Position numbers and translations under genes: made by a program. Of a stretch of DNA of 64,000 bases, positions 20,103 through 27,071 are shown one piece after another; position 1 is the first letter of the stretch; every line of letters starts with the position of its first letter. This DNA is from a virus, in IMG/VR virus record IMGVR_UViG_3300032267_001142, positions 32,001 through 96,000 of that record; one strand, given 5' to 3'. The notes under the pieces were generated by a model. The model was not told the origin of the DNA, ran no database searches, and saw only the letters and a list, made by a program, of their open reading frames with translations.

Positions 20103-23100
20103 ATGCCAACTAGCGTTACTAACATACAGGCTAATTTAGACATGGTGCCAGTGAGCACCAAGGTCGACAACTATCTGTCCGGACTGGAGAGAAAGACTTA
20201 CAAAATCAAATTCGACGCTCAGCCGCTTGGTCACTTAAGCGGAAAAGCCTCCGAGTTTGAAAAGTCTCTCGAAGCTGCTAATGCGCGTGTCGTCGCGTTC
20301 GGTGCGTCGGCAAGCCTGATTGCTGGCGTAGGAACCGCCATGAAAGCGATGGTCAGGGAAGCCGTTCTCGTCGACAGAGAACTTACTGACATCAATGCTA
20401 TATTGCAGGCGTCTACCGGAAACCTCCAAAAGTTTGGTGATAGTCTGTTCGATATCGCAAAAAATACAGGCTCGTCCTTCTCTCAGGTTGCCGACGCCGC
20501 TAAGGAATTTGCTCGTCAAGGTCTTTCAATGGAGGAAACGTTGTCGAGAACGAACGGAGCGCTCGTCTTGACGCGTTTGTCGGGTTTGGAAGTCCAAGAC
20601 TCTGTAAAGGCTTTGACTGGAACTCTCAATACTTTCACGAAAGAGGCTCTAGGAGTTTGGGAAGTCGTGAACCGTCTCGCGAATGTTGACGCCGCTTTCG
20701 CCGTAAGCTCGGCTGACTTGGCCACAGCTATATCCCGCGTAGGTAACGTCGCTGAAGACTCGAAAATCAGTCTTAATGAACTTCTTGCTGCGGTTACCGC
20801 AGTTCAACAGAGAACTGCACGAGGCGGCGCGACTATCGGTGAAGCTTTCAAGACCATCTTTACTCGTCTTGAGCGTTCTGACACCATCGAGAAGCTTGGT
20901 CAGCTAGGTATCGCCACAAAGAACGTAGAAGGTCAGTTGCTTCCAGCAATGCAGGTGATGGAGACCCTTGCTGACAGGTTCTATACCCTTAGCGATTCTC
21001 AGCAGTCTTACATTGCCGAAGCGGTCGGTGGAGTTCGTCAGTTAAACATTCTGAAAGCTCTTCTCAAGGACTTGGGCTCGGAATATTCGATTTATAAAAG
21101 CTCCTTAGACGTAGCCAACAATACGACTAACGAGGCTACGACCAGAAATAACCTTCTCAATCAATCATTAGCCGCTCTTAAAAATAGGGCGTCGGTAGAT
21201 TTTTCTAAGTTTTCTGCGGCGACTCAGACAGCTTTCGCTCCCGCTTTGGAAAAGATATTTGGAGGATTTTCAGAAGTCGTCGCGGGCACGAATCTAGAAT
21301 CTAGTGGTAAGAGCATGGGAGACGCCATATTGAAAGGTCTGGGCTCAGTTATCTCGGGGCCGGTCTTGCAAGCCGTCACCGTTTTGGGTGTTAAATTCCT
21401 AGCTCAGTTTTCCGGTTTCGCGGCGAAGTCGTTGCAGCAGGTTCTTAATATCGGTAGCGTTTCTCGTAACGAGCTAGCCTTGCAGAAGGACATAAACGCC
21501 GTATTAGCTCAGACGCCTCACCTATATGACCAGATTCTTACAAAAGCTAAAAGTACTGTAGATGTTGTTCGTATTCTTTCCGAACACACAAAAGAACTAC
21601 AACTTGCAGGAGCGAGACAAACAAATATAGTAGGAGGCTCAGCCGCGCTACTCAACTCGTTAGGAGCTAAAGGCTCGTCTGAAGGAAATGGAAATTTTAA
21701 GCTAAAAGCTTCTGGATTCGTGCCTAATTTTGTAGACCCTATCGCGGCAATGGGGGAAGTCGCTAGTGCAAAACGCGCAGGGTATAACATATCACCTTCT
21801 GAGGTGCGCTCTATGCGGGCGCGTATTGACGGACGTAGCACTGAGGTTGTTTACAACACCCGCGAGACTGTAATCCCTAATTTTGCAGGGACCGGAGAAC
21901 CGGCGATAGTTCCTCCTAACGCGTCTATCTCTGACCTTATTAGCAGAAAATATGCCGCGAAAGGCGTCATGCCGGGCGGGCAAGAGCTAATTGGAAAAGG
22001 CTCATATCGCCGAGTATATACTCACGAAAAGGGAATAGAAAGCATTCCTCGTTCTGCTGAAGAGGTTTATCCTTCTGTTTCTAAGTTCATGACGCTGGAC
22101 GACGTTAGGGAGCTTATGGCCAGAGAAAGGCGTACGCGGCCAGCGTTGCAGAAGTCTATTGGAGACTTGGGCCTCGGACCAAAAGTATTCGATATTAGGG
22201 AAGACGGTTCTTATGTGGCCGAAAGAGTTTTGATGCCAAAGCTATCGGAGGCTTTAGCCGCAGGAACGATGACCAGTAAGGAAGCTTCTTCCATTCTGGA
22301 GAAAGCAAAGAAATCGCTAAAGGCCAAGGGTCTCGGAAATCTAAACGACGTAACATTTAATAATGTTGCCGGTAACGTAAACACGGGCAAGTTTTCTGTT
22401 TTAGATTTTGGTGGCGGGTTCGTCCCTAATTTTGCGAATTATTTTTCCGCGCCTACGAAGCGCTCAGAGCAACTGCCAGCCGATTTCCTTGAAAAGCTTC
22501 GTTTTCAAGGCCACATGCCTCGCGTTAGAATTCCCGCTAAAGATTTGGCGGTTTTTACGCCTGAGACTTTTAATTTCGGCATAGGTGATGGTTATGCTAG
22601 CCCTTTGGAGGCTGGGACTCAGCTTTACGGATACGGCAAAGAGGACATCGCTGAAAAACTAAGAGTTCCAACCGTGAACGGCGTGGCTTATGACGCCGGT
22701 ATTTCTGCTAGATACGGTAATCTAATGAAGGGTTTAGCTGGGCGAGGCGAGGCTGGAGCGGTGCTTCAGTCCATATTTGAAGACCAAGCTAAGAAAGGTA
22801 ACGACCGCATTATGCACGGTTTAGCTGTCGACGCTGGCGCGGTTTTCAGTTTGAAGACCGATGCCGGAAAGTCTCGTAGCTATCGCGATAACGGCCCCGA
22901 CAGTAGTGGCAAAACTTTTGAATCTGATTTCTTTAGGCAATATTTGAGTGGTTCACCTCTGCCGTCCTCAAACCAGCCGGTAGACGTCTCGGCAGCGAAT
23001 ATTGAAAAACTTAGGTCTGGAGATTTCAAAGCCTCATTGCCCTCTTGGATAACCCGTGGAGAATTAAAGATTTCGGCCTTTGAGTATTCTCAGCGCCGTG

Positions 23101-26100
23101 GCAAATCAACAGGAGCTTCTCCTAGCATCAGCCGTATCGTCGCTAATGAGCTTGTGTCGCGCCTCGACGAAGCCCTGCCAGCGATAATCTCTGACCCATC
23201 GGAGCTGAGAAGGGCTCTCAACGAAAAAACCAGAAAAGGAGAGACTTTCGGCTCAGTCCTGTCCAGAACTGCAAAATTGAACCCCGCCATATACAAGGGG
23301 CGCGGATTCGTTCCTAATTTTAGCTCCTCTCAAATTTCAGCGAGAGAGGCTATCGCGAGCGGTCTTACCTCTCAGATTCCTGGTCTCGGCGAAGCGATTT
23401 CTAGAGAAGTTTCTGGAACAGGCGTCTCTTTGGATGATACGAGAGTAAACCTCGGCGGACATTTGCCAGTTTCAGTAACAAACGTCAGAGACGAGGGACC
23501 ATTAGCTCTGCCTGAAATAGGCGCTGCCAGAGTTTCTAGAAGAGGCGGAAATCCTCGCTTAGCAGGAAGCGGAAAAGAGTATCTATCAAGAGGTTACGTT
23601 CCTAACTTTGCGACCGAAGACGACGAAGGTTTATTGATGCCTAGCAGCTCAAATCTGCCGGATAGAATTGTCGTTGTTGAGGTTAAAAATGCAAACGAGC
23701 TTGGACAAAAAATAGGCAATGCCGTAGCCGATGCAGACAAAAAGGCCAGCACTTCCGCTGGGACCGACACTAAAAATACGCCAACCGCTCCGAAGGTCGT
23801 CACTCCTCCTGTTTCAAGCTCCGAGAGCTTTCTTGACGGGGGAGACATAGCCCCGTCTAAGGACAAAGAGGAGGCTATAAGAAAAGACAAAGAAGATACT
23901 CGCAGAAATCAACTCGCCTTGGAGAGGGAGGGCGAAGCTTATCAAAAACGCAGGGAGTCCAAGGCTAAATGGGAGCAAAGGGCGATATACGGAAGCCTTG
24001 GCGTTTCGTTCTTAGGTGGCGCTATATCTAGTCAGTTTGGTGGAGATACTATCTCTGATAGAAAGACGGGCAGAAGAGTCGACGCCGCTGGAGAAGCCAT
24101 CTCTACTGGCTTAGGTGCATTTTCTGCAACAGGCAACGTTTACGTTGGAGCTGCTGCTGCGGTTGGTAGTTTGTTATTCAATTTAGGCAAACTAGGGACG
24201 ACTTTTGAGGACTTAGCAAAAGAGAGCGAAAAGCTTACCGCGAAGCATGCTGAAGTGACTCAGTCGCTTTCTGGGTTCTCGGTCGCGGTATCGCAGACTG
24301 ATGACTTAATCAAAGGCGGAGCCTCTAAGTCTGCTATTTTCCGAGCGCAGCAAGCTGAACAGGAGGCGTTCAATAGAACTCCGAAGGAATTACAGTCCAA
24401 GCTTCTCGCGGCGAATCGCGACCAAGAGACTCTCGCTAAAATACAAATAGACATAGCCAAAGAGCAAGAAAAAGAAGCTGCATTCGCAAATCTTTCTACC
24501 GTATCTAAAGGATATCAAGAAAAGGCTTACAAAAACCGAGGCTTTTTCGAGAGAGTGGGTTCAGGATTGGGACTTCCTTCGCTTGCTAACTTCGTCGCTG
24601 GAGCCACCGGCTTGAAGAAAACGGACGAGCTTAGTTCAAGTAACTACGATAAAGATGCTTATAAAGAAATCTCCGCCCTAATCCAAAAAACCGGCATTCT
24701 AGATAATCTCGACAACTCTCAACTGTCAGAATTGCGTGATAAACTAAAAGCCGCTCAATATACAAGTGCTAACGATTCTGCTTCGCTGACTCCTAATCAA
24801 AATACCCAAGCTAGAATTGCCGCTGTCGTAAAGCAACAAACTGGAGCGTCGTTGCCCGAAGAGTTTTCAGAGACCAATGGGACTATCGCCATCAAGGCGT
24901 TCTTGAGCGCCATCACTGGACAAGAAAATCTAAAGAGGTTTACTGACGCGCAGAAATCAGCTCAAGCTTTTTATATTTCGATTCGTTCGCTTTCTACCGC
25001 GTTTCAAGAATCGCAGAGGGCTACGTCAGCTTACGATAGCTTCGTGACTCAGAAAAGCTCTTCCGCCGCAGGTCTGGCTTTTGGCGGACTCCGTGGTATT
25101 GCGTCGTTAAACGAGCCATTTACATCTAGCGATTCAAAAATTCAAGAATCTTACAGAATTTCTAAAGCAGAAATCGAAACTTCAAGAAGTCTTGAACTCG
25201 AAAAAGCTCGTAACGAAGCAAGGGTTAACTTGAGTCAGGCAGTCTCTCCTCAAGTTATCGAGGAGGCGGTCTCAGGTAAGGGAGGAATAGCGTTTAAGGC
25301 CAACTTGAGGGAAGTTCTCGCGCAGGCGCAAACCGGAGACCCTTCTGTTATCGTCGCGAGACTATTATCATCTTTGGAGAATGCGAAAAATGGGAAAGCT
25401 GAAGGCGTTAGCGTAAGTGACTCCGCAGGAGCAGAACTCATAAGTACGCTCAAGACTTTACTATTCAATCAAAACTCGACAAAAGCCTCAATCAACGCGT
25501 CATTTAACGACAAATCTAACGATGCGTTTCAACAGGCCGGACTCGCTAGGACGGGAGCTGCGCTGGATTTCATAGGCAATCAGTTCAGGGGCTCTAAAGC
25601 CTTTTCGAGTGATGGTCAAGACATTTCGACTTCTTCTAAGGGATTTGCGGCGATACTAGAGGGAATAACGTTAACCAACGATAAGAGCGCGCAGAGACGT
25701 TTCAGACAGAGCTACAATAATCCCGTCGGCCCATTCGGTCCTGCGAGAGCTAATTTGGTATATGACGCCGAGCAAAAGAAGCTGCCGATATACGAAAACA
25801 TTGCGGCAGGAATCAAGGACGACGCCGCAAGCGGTCTTGGACCTACTCAGGAATTGGTTGATTTTCTAAACCGACAGGGTCGCTCGGCTGAAGCGGAAAA
25901 AGCCGCGAAAGGTCTTGCTCGAAATAGAGCCAGACTAGAAGGAGCTTACAGCGCGCAAGGCAAGAGCTTTCTGCAAAAAAACGGACTCGCTGATTTCGCT
26001 CAATTCAAAGACGCCATAAAAGGTGATGTCTTCGAGGGCTCATCTGGAGGTCGAGTTGATATATCTAGGACTTTGAATGATGTAGAAGCTGCCGTTAAGT

Positions 26101-27071
26101 CTACTGACTTCGGAAAAGCGCAAAGTCTTCTTTCGGGTTTGAGAACTTCTGCCAGCCCAATAGCCGCTAAGAAAATCGACGAATTTTCACAAAGAATCGG
26201 CGGTCTTAAGAGTCAGTCAGAATTACTGGGCGTCTCTGCGAATCTGCAAGCCGCTAAGGACTTGAAAGGCGGCGCTGGCCCACTTACAAATGATAAATAT
26301 TGGGAGGGCGTAATAAAGCTTTATGGCGCGTTGGTATCAAGGTTGACTTATTCGGAAAACCGCGAAGCGGTCGATACCGTAATGGGTTCTTCATTAGGCG
26401 CACTCAAAAATATTACATCTCTTGGGGCGAATCCCGCTGCAATTTTTACTTCTGGGGCTTTCAGCACCACGGGCGCAAAACTCAATAGCGAGGTTGAGGC
26501 TACTAGACTCTCATTGAGTGCCGCGATGGATAAGGCCACTCCTAAATTTGTAGACCCAAGACTGCCTCAGTATTCCGAAATTTATGCAGGACCGCAAAGA
26601 AGAGTGCAGGACGCTATAACTGCTTTACCTGCTGGCACTGGTGTCGATAAGAGCATGGTGGCCATCATGAGTGATGGTTACGGCGCTGACAGGGAGTCTA
26701 CCGATAGAAGGGTTTATGAGGACTTCGCTAGAATTCTGCGTGAAAATAACAAAGTCGGCTCGTTGCTAGGTTCGACTCCTACTAATGACATAGTGGGTAG
26801 CGTTATGAACGCGGTTAATGATGCGCTGCGTCGCGACGTAGGCAATCGTTACGAATCTGGGAATCTCGGCAAGGATATCAAGGTAAACACTGATGGGACA
26901 ATTACTCTCAACGCTTCTGTAAATATCAAAGCCGACGAGTCGGATGTAGCTCAGAGAGTTAAATCGGAATTCGATAAGGTGTTTGAAAATCTTCAGTATC
27001 AGATTCAACAAATCATCAATCAAACTGGGGCGGTAATTCCTCCTAGGTCGTTCAGTCAGCCTGTTCAATAA
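20103..27071 (+). CDS. Tail tape measure protein with internal enzyme-like cargo block
   Basis: 2322 aa; N-terminal TP901-type TMP core (DIAKNTGSSFSQVADAAKEFARQG...IGEAFKTIFTRL), Ala/Ser-rich helical C-terminal half, hydrophobic segments. Confidence 0.9.
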   Translation: MPTSVTNIQANLDMVPVSTKVDNYLSGLERKTYKIKFDAQPLGHLSGKASEFEKSLEAANARVVAFGASASLIAGVGTAMKAMVREAVLVDRELTDINAILQASTGNLQKFGDSLFDIAKNTGSSFSQVADAAKEFARQGLSMEETLSRTNGALVLTRLSGLEVQDSVKALTGTLNTFTKEALGVWEVVNRLANVDAAFAVSSADLATAISRVGNVAEDSKISLNELLAAVTAVQQRTARGGATIGEAFKTIFTRLERSDTIEKLGQLGIATKNVEGQLLPAMQVMETLADRFYTLSDSQQSYIAEAVGGVRQLNILKALLKDLGSEYSIYKSSLDVANNTTNEATTRNNLLNQSLAALKNRASVDFSKFSAATQTAFAPALEKIFGGFSEVVAGTNLESSGKSMGDAILKGLGSVISGPVLQAVTVLGVKFLAQFSGFAAKSLQQVLNIGSVSRNELALQKDINAVLAQTPHLYDQILTKAKSTVDVVRILSEHTKELQLAGARQTNIVGGSAALLNSLGAKGSSEGNGNFKLKASGFVPNFVDPIAAMGEVASAKRAGYNISPSEVRSMRARIDGRSTEVVYNTRETVIPNFAGTGEPAIVPPNASISDLISRKYAAKGVMPGGQELIGKGSYRRVYTHEKGIESIPRSAEEVYPSVSKFMTLDDVRELMARERRTRPALQKSIGDLGLGPKVFDIREDGSYVAERVLMPKLSEALAAGTMTSKEASSILEKAKKSLKAKGLGNLNDVTFNNVAGNVNTGKFSVLDFGGGFVPNFANYFSAPTKRSEQLPADFLEKLRFQGHMPRVRIPAKDLAVFTPETFNFGIGDGYASPLEAGTQLYGYGKEDIAEKLRVPTVNGVAYDAGISARYGNLMKGLAGRGEAGAVLQSIFEDQAKKGNDRIMHGLAVDAGAVFSLKTDAGKSRSYRDNGPDSSGKTFESDFFRQYLSGSPLPSSNQPVDVSAANIEKLRSGDFKASLPSWITRGELKISAFEYSQRRGKSTGASPSISRIVANELVSRLDEALPAIISDPSELRRALNEKTRKGETFGSVLSRTAKLNPAIYKGRGFVPNFSSSQISAREAIASGLTSQIPGLGEAISREVSGTGVSLDDTRVNLGGHLPVSVTNVRDEGPLALPEIGAARVSRRGGNPRLAGSGKEYLSRGYVPNFATEDDEGLLMPSSSNLPDRIVVVEVKNANELGQKIGNAVADADKKASTSAGTDTKNTPTAPKVVTPPVSSSESFLDGGDIAPSKDKEEAIRKDKEDTRRNQLALEREGEAYQKRRESKAKWEQRAIYGSLGVSFLGGAISSQFGGDTISDRKTGRRVDAAGEAISTGLGAFSATGNVYVGAAAAVGSLLFNLGKLGTTFEDLAKESEKLTAKHAEVTQSLSGFSVAVSQTDDLIKGGASKSAIFRAQQAEQEAFNRTPKELQSKLLAANRDQETLAKIQIDIAKEQEKEAAFANLSTVSKGYQEKAYKNRGFFERVGSGLGLPSLANFVAGATGLKKTDELSSSNYDKDAYKEISALIQKTGILDNLDNSQLSELRDKLKAAQYTSANDSASLTPNQNTQARIAAVVKQQTGASLPEEFSETNGTIAIKAFLSAITGQENLKRFTDAQKSAQAFYISIRSLSTAFQESQRATSAYDSFVTQKSSSAAGLAFGGLRGIASLNEPFTSSDSKIQESYRISKAEIETSRSLELEKARNEARVNLSQAVSPQVIEEAVSGKGGIAFKANLREVLAQAQTGDPSVIVARLLSSLENAKNGKAEGVSVSDSAGAELISTLKTLLFNQNSTKASINASFNDKSNDAFQQAGLARTGAALDFIGNQFRGSKAFSSDGQDISTSSKGFAAILEGITLTNDKSAQRRFRQSYNNPVGPFGPARANLVYDAEQKKLPIYENIAAGIKDDAASGLGPTQELVDFLNRQGRSAEAEKAAKGLARNRARLEGAYSAQGKSFLQKNGLADFAQFKDAIKGDVFEGSSGGRVDISRTLNDVEAAVKSTDFGKAQSLLSGLRTSASPIAAKKIDEFSQRIGGLKSQSELLGVSANLQAAKDLKGGAGPLTNDKYWEGVIKLYGALVSRLTYSENREAVDTVMGSSLGALKNITSLGANPAAIFTSGAFSTTGAKLNSEVEATRLSLSAAMDKATPKFVDPRLPQYSEIYAGPQRRVQDAITALPAGTGVDKSMVAIMSDGYGADRESTDRRVYEDFARILRENNKVGSLLGSTPTNDIVGSVMNAVNDALRRDVGNRYESGNLGKDIKVNTDGTITLNASVNIKADESDVAQRVKSEFDKVFENLQYQIQQIINQTGAVIPPRSFSQPVQ
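21714..23609 (+). repeat. Four G[FY]VPNF peptide repeats in TMP plus one degenerate VIPNF
   Basis: GFVPNF at 21714-21731, 22416-22433, 23304-23321; GYVPNF at 23592-23609; VIPNF at 21870-21884; codons differ between copies. Confidence 0.9.

Follow-up and report, generated by a model that had tools for sequence, protein, structure and literature searches.

Location and sequence motifs of the kinase-fold cassette

The DNA stretch analyzed here (the window, 64,000 nucleotides) comprises bases 32001 to 96000 of IMG/VR virus record IMGVR_UViG_3300032267_001142, a 186,105-bp phage genome that carries direct terminal repeats and was judged complete. The large terminase shares 24% identity with the counterpart in Bacillus phage Slash, placing the phage far from cultured ones. 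The window encodes a giant tape measure protein (TMP), the product of gene P0002 (20103 to 27071, plus strand), in a single open reading frame (ORF) of 2322 amino acids (aa); the public gene call, P0003, begins 13 codons later. Identity as a TMP is indicated by the PhageMin_Tail core (PF10145) at residues 119 to 309 (20457 to 21029, plus strand; E value, 1.5e-28) and by matches to 13 PHROG tape-measure families. Residues 621 to 771 of this protein (21963 to 22415, plus strand) form a cassette that very probably belongs, as a true homologue, to the protein-kinase-like (PKL) fold superfamily, as judged from homologues, an AlphaFold2 model, and structural matches confined to kinases. The initial annotation had proposed a minimal PKL domain inside the TMP at 21981 to 22412 (plus strand), corresponding to residues 627 to 770 in frame with ORF 20103-27071, and this proposal is borne out by the homologues, by the match of one of them (P0008) to the ABC1 family, and by the predicted fold. 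The genome has one copy of the cassette.

Elements of the cassette follow the order β1 to β3, a short helix, αC, β4 and β5, αD, αE, the catalytic loop, β7 and β8, and DFG. All are encoded on the plus strand, and translation confirmed each motif string quoted in the initial annotation, in the order and place given there. The glycine-rich loop, LIGKGSYRRV (21987 to 22016), includes G631, G633, R636, and V638, which are invariant among the TMP-borne members of the family, and is profile-aligned to the G-loop of Pim-1. At the end of β3 (22047 to 22052), an invariant Pro649 is followed by Arg650 at the position expected for the ATP-anchoring lysine, and four TMP relatives have lysine there (PK[ST]). 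The lysine of VSKF (K661), previously named as the β3 lysine, was rejected on conservation and model position: it is not conserved (K/K/E/S/E) and lies past the helix that follows β3 in the model. Assignment of the αC glutamate to ARE is plausible, as the candidate residue, Glu675 (22125 to 22127), sits in the long αC helix of the model and is acidic in 6/6 members (E/E/E/D/D/D).

The segment from GLGPKV, at the entry to β4, through β5 and the hinge (22170 to 22229) contains the invariant residues G690, G692, P693, and A706 and ends with the hinge sequence YVAERV (22212 to 22229); it is in register with Escherichia coli UbiB in an alignment that was not significant. The catalytic loop, DVTFNN (22347 to 22364), provides D749 and N754 in a D-x4-N arrangement; both residues are invariant in 6/6 members and align with the HRD aspartate and the asparagine of Pim-1, DAPK1, and NleH. 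The DFG motif (D768; 22404 to 22412) is the last structured element of the domain, with aspartate in five members and glutamate in one. A GFVPNF motif begins two codons past the DFG, as originally described, and this second GFVPNF delimiter (22416 to 22433) is disordered in both models. The strict ordered string of kinase motifs occurred in 6 of 20,000 shuffles of the TMP.

Homologues and conserved residues

With TMP residues 595 to 790 as the query, exhaustive searching of 1.84 billion representative proteins with phmmer recovered the module in the TMPs P0007 (2081 aa; 51% identity; E value, 8e-32), P0008 (3283 aa; E value, 1.3e-10), P0010 (3703 aa; E value, 7.4e-8), and P0011 (3248 aa; E value, 6.1e-5) and in a free-standing protein of 177 aa, P0012 (E value, 1.9e-4). 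The module spans ~150 to 170 aa in these relatives. Two module alignments, A1 and A2, the latter with six members, were built from the relatives' DNA sub-ranges. Overall identity among modules is 30 to 50%, and invariant or near-invariant columns comprise G631, G633, R636, and V638; P649 followed by K/R; E653 and R679; G690, G692, and P693 (GLGP); A706 and the AER of the hinge; P712 and L714; D749 and N754; and the acidic residue of DFG. Conserved columns correspond to the nucleotide-binding and catalytic motifs of kinases, and the occurrence of these motifs in the TMP is therefore not due to chance. Judged by sequence, the modules constitute a small, undescribed family that is found almost solely as a cassette within giant TMPs of uncultured phages.

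Individual motifs vary within the family. The glycine loop has the consensus GxGx[FY]RxV, with both glycines invariant in the five TMP-borne members. The residue after Pro649 is lysine in P0007, P0008, P0010, and P0011 and arginine in both the phage studied here (Arg650) and P0012. The P0008 module (L002:6616-7107) carries the catalytic loop HADLHGGN and then LDLA, and the loop of the phage studied here reads NLND. P0012 (L004:223-756) looks circularly permuted, running from β3 to a DFG-like IIDAG, followed by a linker of ~30 aa and a C-terminal glycine loop, KIGEGESRIVF; when its last 34 residues were moved to the front, the score against the family hidden Markov model rose from 46.0 to 54.7 bits and a single full-length match was obtained.

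Other searches added no members. A tblastn search of the segment against 50,697 phage records gave no match, a word-index protein search with alignment found no relative among proteins of 74 to 307 aa, and scans of IMG/VR and JGI metagenome contigs with back-translated patterns gave no confirmed relative.

Evidence for a kinase fold

Sequence comparison links the family to kinases through its relatives and profiles. The P0008 module matches Pfam ABC1 (PF03109) with 25.0 bits, above the cut-off of 22.9 (E value, 1.2e-5), and is the only homologue to pass the gathering score of that family. The match covers profile positions 101 to 210, the C-terminal half, and includes the hinge, the HADxHxGN catalytic loop, and the DFG. 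The P0007 module matches YrbL-PhoP_reg weakly (E value, 0.068), and the models for RIO, Bud32, Kdo, and OspG kinases (PF01163, PF06293, and PF22303) gave no match at E values up to 10 for four members or up to 1 for five members. The family resembles these kinases in structure only. The window segment alone had no meaningful match in PHROGs and found nothing relevant among PDB sequences by phmmer. Profiles of A1 and A2 retrieved almost solely protein kinases from PDB sequences (Pim-1, DAPK1, NleH1/2, LegK4, Cdc7, and PKR; E values of 0.02 to 0.2). Each of these alignments falls on the catalytic loop and DFG, and that with Pim-1 also on the G-loop; in those with Pim-1, DAPK1, and NleH, residues D749, N754, and D768 are in register with HRDxxxxN...DFG. 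In hhalign, the family aligned with E. coli UbiB with the hinge and catalytic loop in register, at a level that was not significant (probability, 2.35%; E value, 0.02; one comparison).

The predicted structure contains the bilobal PKL fold. AlphaFold2 with the six-row alignment gave a model with a predicted local distance difference test score (pLDDT) of 84.4 and a predicted template modeling score (pTM) of 0.77, in which the order of elements is β1, β2, β3, a short helix, a long αC, β4, β5, αD, αE, β7, and β8. Foldseek retrieved only kinases from the PDB, with PRPK at an E value of 3.3e-4 and further matches to CK2, Rio2, and PknB. Alignments to kinases with VIA-align had Z scores of 8.6 to 11.1 over 120 to 150 of 157 residues (model residues 1 to 152), including PRPK (Z score, 11.1; 140 residues aligned; root mean square deviation, 3.2 Å), Rio2 (10.7), OspG (10.1; 128 to 130 residues aligned), the ABC1-like MSMEG_1954 (10.1), and NleH2 (8.8). 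Kinases were also matched in the ESM Atlas and in the viral structure library BFVD, including free-standing phage proteins of 160 to 210 aa, and the OspG-kinase cluster was among the nearest neighbors in language-model features.

Truncation after the DFG motif

The entire N-lobe is present, as is the first half of the C-lobe (αD, αE, the catalytic loop, and DFG D768). The domain ends two residues past the DFG at the G[FY][VI]PNF linker, without an activation segment or αF to αI. Completion of the C-lobe by downstream sequence was considered and rejected: in an extended AlphaFold2 model of residues 615 to 840, the pLDDT is <50 everywhere past the DFG and the core stays confident. No conservation past the DFG was found among the carriers. 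The initial description likened a stripped kinase of ~145 aa in size to RIO, APH, and Kdo kinases, but the module is smaller than these because everything past the DFG is missing.

Modular architecture of the tape measure protein

Residues 538 to ~1170 of the TMP (window 21714-23609) contain four G[FY]VPNF motifs and one VIPNF, which delimit at least four modules. The G[FY]VPNF copies lie at 21714-21731, 22416-22433, 23304-23321, and 23592-23609, the last reading GYVPNF. Strict copies of G-x-[IV]-P-N-[FYL] in relatives range from zero in P0007, where the motif is degenerate (e.g., GGFNP), to ten in P0010, and a full-text literature search found no TMP or phage paper mentioning a GFVPNF-type motif. 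Module 1 (residues 538 to 620; 21714 to 21962, plus strand), the conserved upstream flank of the kinase cassette, extends from the first GFVPNF through VIPNF (21870-21884) and GTGEPAIVPPN. It is 64% identical to residues 541 to 629 of the relative P0004, and the corresponding modules of P0007 and P0004 are 52% identical.

Comparison of P0007 with P0004 shows what is exchanged: the pre-kinase and post-kinase modules are 52% and 36% identical, respectively, and enclose the 161-aa kinase in P0007 but only 13 aa in P0004. In the relatives' TMPs, the kinase module occupies residues 595 to 773, 1214 to 1370, 1517 to 1688, and 1053 to 1227. Presence or absence between retained flanks, together with the differing positions, indicates a discrete and movable module. 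On these sequence comparisons, the kinase domain is a discrete cassette that is swappable among related giant TMPs. The module between the third and fourth motifs (window 23322-23591; residues ~1074 to 1163, IPGLGEAI...VSVTNVRDEG) appears by eye to be shared with P0004 (residues ~1090 to 1125) and, unlike the kinase, looks like a fixed component of the array.

Other modules were seen in the relatives. HExxH (zincin-like) motifs occur in P0008 (L002; residues 1065 and 1425), P0011 (L003; residue 1282), P0010 (residue 1137), and P0004 (residue 2315), and in P0008 and P0011 the motif lies in the module directly after the kinase cassette. The TMP in the window contains no HExxH. An embedded zincin protease that processes the GFVPNF motifs was rejected, as HExxH is present in four relatives but absent from this TMP; the HExxH modules of the relatives might be peptidases that process the proteins carrying them, a role already put forward for polyvalent proteins. 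In P0006, a TMP relative of 3246 aa, the module between two GYIPNF motifs (residues ~650 to 815) reads by eye like an S-adenosylmethionine-dependent methyltransferase (IDIGGG...). PF23802 (DUF7178) is found in P0006 and P0010, and PF26092 weakly in P0010.

The gene order of ~325 aa, TMP, and then ~535 aa is retained in all related contigs. GC content is 45 to 52% and uniform across the TMP gene, giving no sign of recent foreign origin. No tRNA genes were found in the window (1-64000) by ARAGORN.

Comparison with known kinases

The closest published parallel is a monophyletic group of kinases in the polyvalent proteins of phages and prophages, for which loss of the whole C-terminal subdomain was predicted (Iyer, Burroughs, Anand, de Souza, and Aravind, 2017, J Bacteriol; PMC5512222). 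These are of the Ser/Thr/Tyr type, retain ATP-binding and phosphotransfer residues, and also exist as stand-alone versions, and TMPs are not mentioned as carriers (PMC5512222). Like them, the TMP family consists of a kinase domain within a giant multi-module phage protein thought to be delivered with DNA, has lost the C-terminal subdomain but kept active-site residues, and includes a stand-alone version. Unlike them, it has no conserved glutamate N-terminal to strand 2 (K/E/S/Q/S), its β5 sequence, [YF]xA[ED]R, has no glutamine in the last N-lobe strand, and its histidine is not conserved, with an insert of at most one residue between histidine and aspartate, in one member. The two groups were set apart by the published description rather than by sequence alignment. 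No description of a TMP with an internal kinase domain came up in full-text literature searches.

The best structural match is to Bud32/PRPK (TP53RK, KEOPS), over chain residues 31 to 186. PRPK, too, has a compact bilobal core that lacks an activation loop, but it is only 14% identical, continues for tens of residues past the DFG, and belongs to the unrelated context of tRNA t6A synthesis. Similarity extends to the type III effector kinases OspG of Shigella and NleH1/2 of E. coli, which are stripped cores of ~165 to 195 aa injected via a narrow conduit. Identity with these is 14 to 15%, and the OspG match ends at chain residue 160-161, with more residues past the DFG, whereas nothing follows the DFG in the TMP module. 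OspG depends on an E2~ubiquitin partner that is absent from bacteria, and the TMP modules have no PF22303 match. As an analogy only, the extreme trimming parallels that of OspG and NleH, which pass a narrow conduit unfolded.

Among curated families, only ABC1/UbiB (PF03109; Rv3197, MSMEG_1954, and E. coli UbiB) was matched by sequence above the cut-off, via P0008. Proteins of the ABC1 family are 400 to 550 aa long, carry a KxGQ extension at the N terminus, and show an Ala-rich loop in place of GxG, whereas the TMP family has a canonical GxGxF loop and ~150 aa. T7 gp0.7 is expressed early, once the phage has entered, and is not a component of the virion or tail. The cassette would be a pre-made counterpart to it, as well as to minimal injected effector kinases such as OspG and NleH. 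Phosphorylation of host proteins by gp0.7 at the very start of infection provides the functional precedent (PMC5512222).

Proposed function and alternative explanations

TMPs lie in the tail lumen and, in model siphophages, are expelled into the envelope at infection, and ATP is present only in the cytoplasm. The best explanation overall, given about an even chance of being correct, is that the PKL cassette of the TMP is delivered to the host and acts there. The TMP, with its cassette, would remain in the tail until infection and then be driven out into the envelope or cytoplasm of the host. Meeting ATP only after ejection, the cassette would refold there, bind ATP/Mg, and either phosphorylate a host protein, as T7 gp0.7 does, or hydrolyze or sense ATP in the manner of Bud32/RIO, ahead of phage gene expression. 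Since ATP is confined to the cytoplasm, the cassette would become functional after ejection and refolding. That the module is both delivered and a catalytically working kinase or ATPase has somewhat less than an even chance. A more elaborate scenario is tentative: a new PKL family would be stored in the tail and released ahead of the DNA, host proteins would be phosphorylated before transcription, the trimming would be an adaptation to unfolded storage or passage, and the G[FY][VI]PNF motifs would be joints or processing sites of an array of swappable effectors.

Several points weigh against a delivered and active kinase. The window's own copy matches no Pfam family, and neither this copy nor the phage's own genome has a match to the PF03109 model. 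The ten structural and tail-region proteins around the TMP (window 12355-34739) have no Pfam or PHROG match. Three or more folded copies of a 150-aa domain would be too large for the lumen of a siphophage tail tube (~4 nm), and the cassette must therefore be stored unfolded or elsewhere. Within the domain, arginine (Arg650) occupies the β3 lysine position, and replacement of this lysine by arginine is a classic inactivating change in kinases. The HxD histidine is absent, there being no histidine before D749 in this copy, and αF, which anchors the catalytic core of canonical kinases, is lost. Bud32/PRPK and Rio2, moreover, act in cells mainly as ATPases and not as protein kinases. Given Arg650 and the missing histidine, this copy may, from its sequence, have weak activity or none at all, even within an active family.

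Some of these features support a kinase-fold module without phosphotransfer, either a pseudokinase, nucleotide sensor, switch, or scaffold that binds ATP, another ligand, or a host protein, or an ATPase in the style of Bud32/RIO; such a module might, for example, sense arrival in the cytoplasm. In addition to Arg650 and the lack of histidine before D749, the absence of an activation segment and substrate-binding lobe is in keeping with this explanation, as is the identity of the nearest structures, PRPK/Bud32 and Rio2, which are mainly ATPases. It is nevertheless considered less likely than a delivered, working enzyme; every member retains D749, N754, and the acidic residue of DFG, and the TMP-borne ones share an unvarying G-loop, which suggests that γ-phosphate chemistry is still selected. 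Arginine at the β3 site also occurs in the free-standing P0012 and may thus be tolerated in the family. A role in the producing cell, through phosphorylation or binding of assembly factors or as a dispensable passenger or spacer that lengthens the ruler, is improbable. ATP is available in that cell, and the presence or absence of the cassette in related TMPs with retained flanks implies that the TMP backbone can do without it, but conservation of catalytic motifs at 30 to 50% overall identity would be unexpected for a spacer, and the TMP enzymatic modules studied so far, such as the cell wall hydrolase motifs of mycobacteriophage TM4 and T5 pb2, act at entry. Chance resemblance in a non-kinase insert might be argued from the lack of Pfam, PHROG, or PDB sequence matches for the window's own segment; homologues with conserved motifs, an ABC1 match above the cut-off, a confident model that matches only kinases, and the 6/20,000 shuffles leave it very little credence.

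Implications for tape measure proteins

TMPs are generally regarded as rulers, with a cell wall hydrolase in some cases. The modules described here are a new sequence family, and the TMP is a new carrier, for the truncated kinases previously predicted in injected phage proteins. The comparison of Arg650 in this phage with the canonical lysine of its relatives offers a natural pair, active versus possibly inactive. As one of the shortest kinase cores known, at ~150 aa and ending at the DFG, the cassette would also be useful for testing how small a part of the fold suffices for ATP binding and phosphotransfer. Conservation of a kinase-fold cassette supports a view of giant TMPs as carriers of pre-made enzymes that act before phage gene expression, and it carries the polyvalent-protein concept (PMC5512222) beyond proteins that are conjugative or packaged in the head, into the tail lumen. 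Along with its DNA, the phage may introduce into its host a kinase or ATP-binding module made beforehand.

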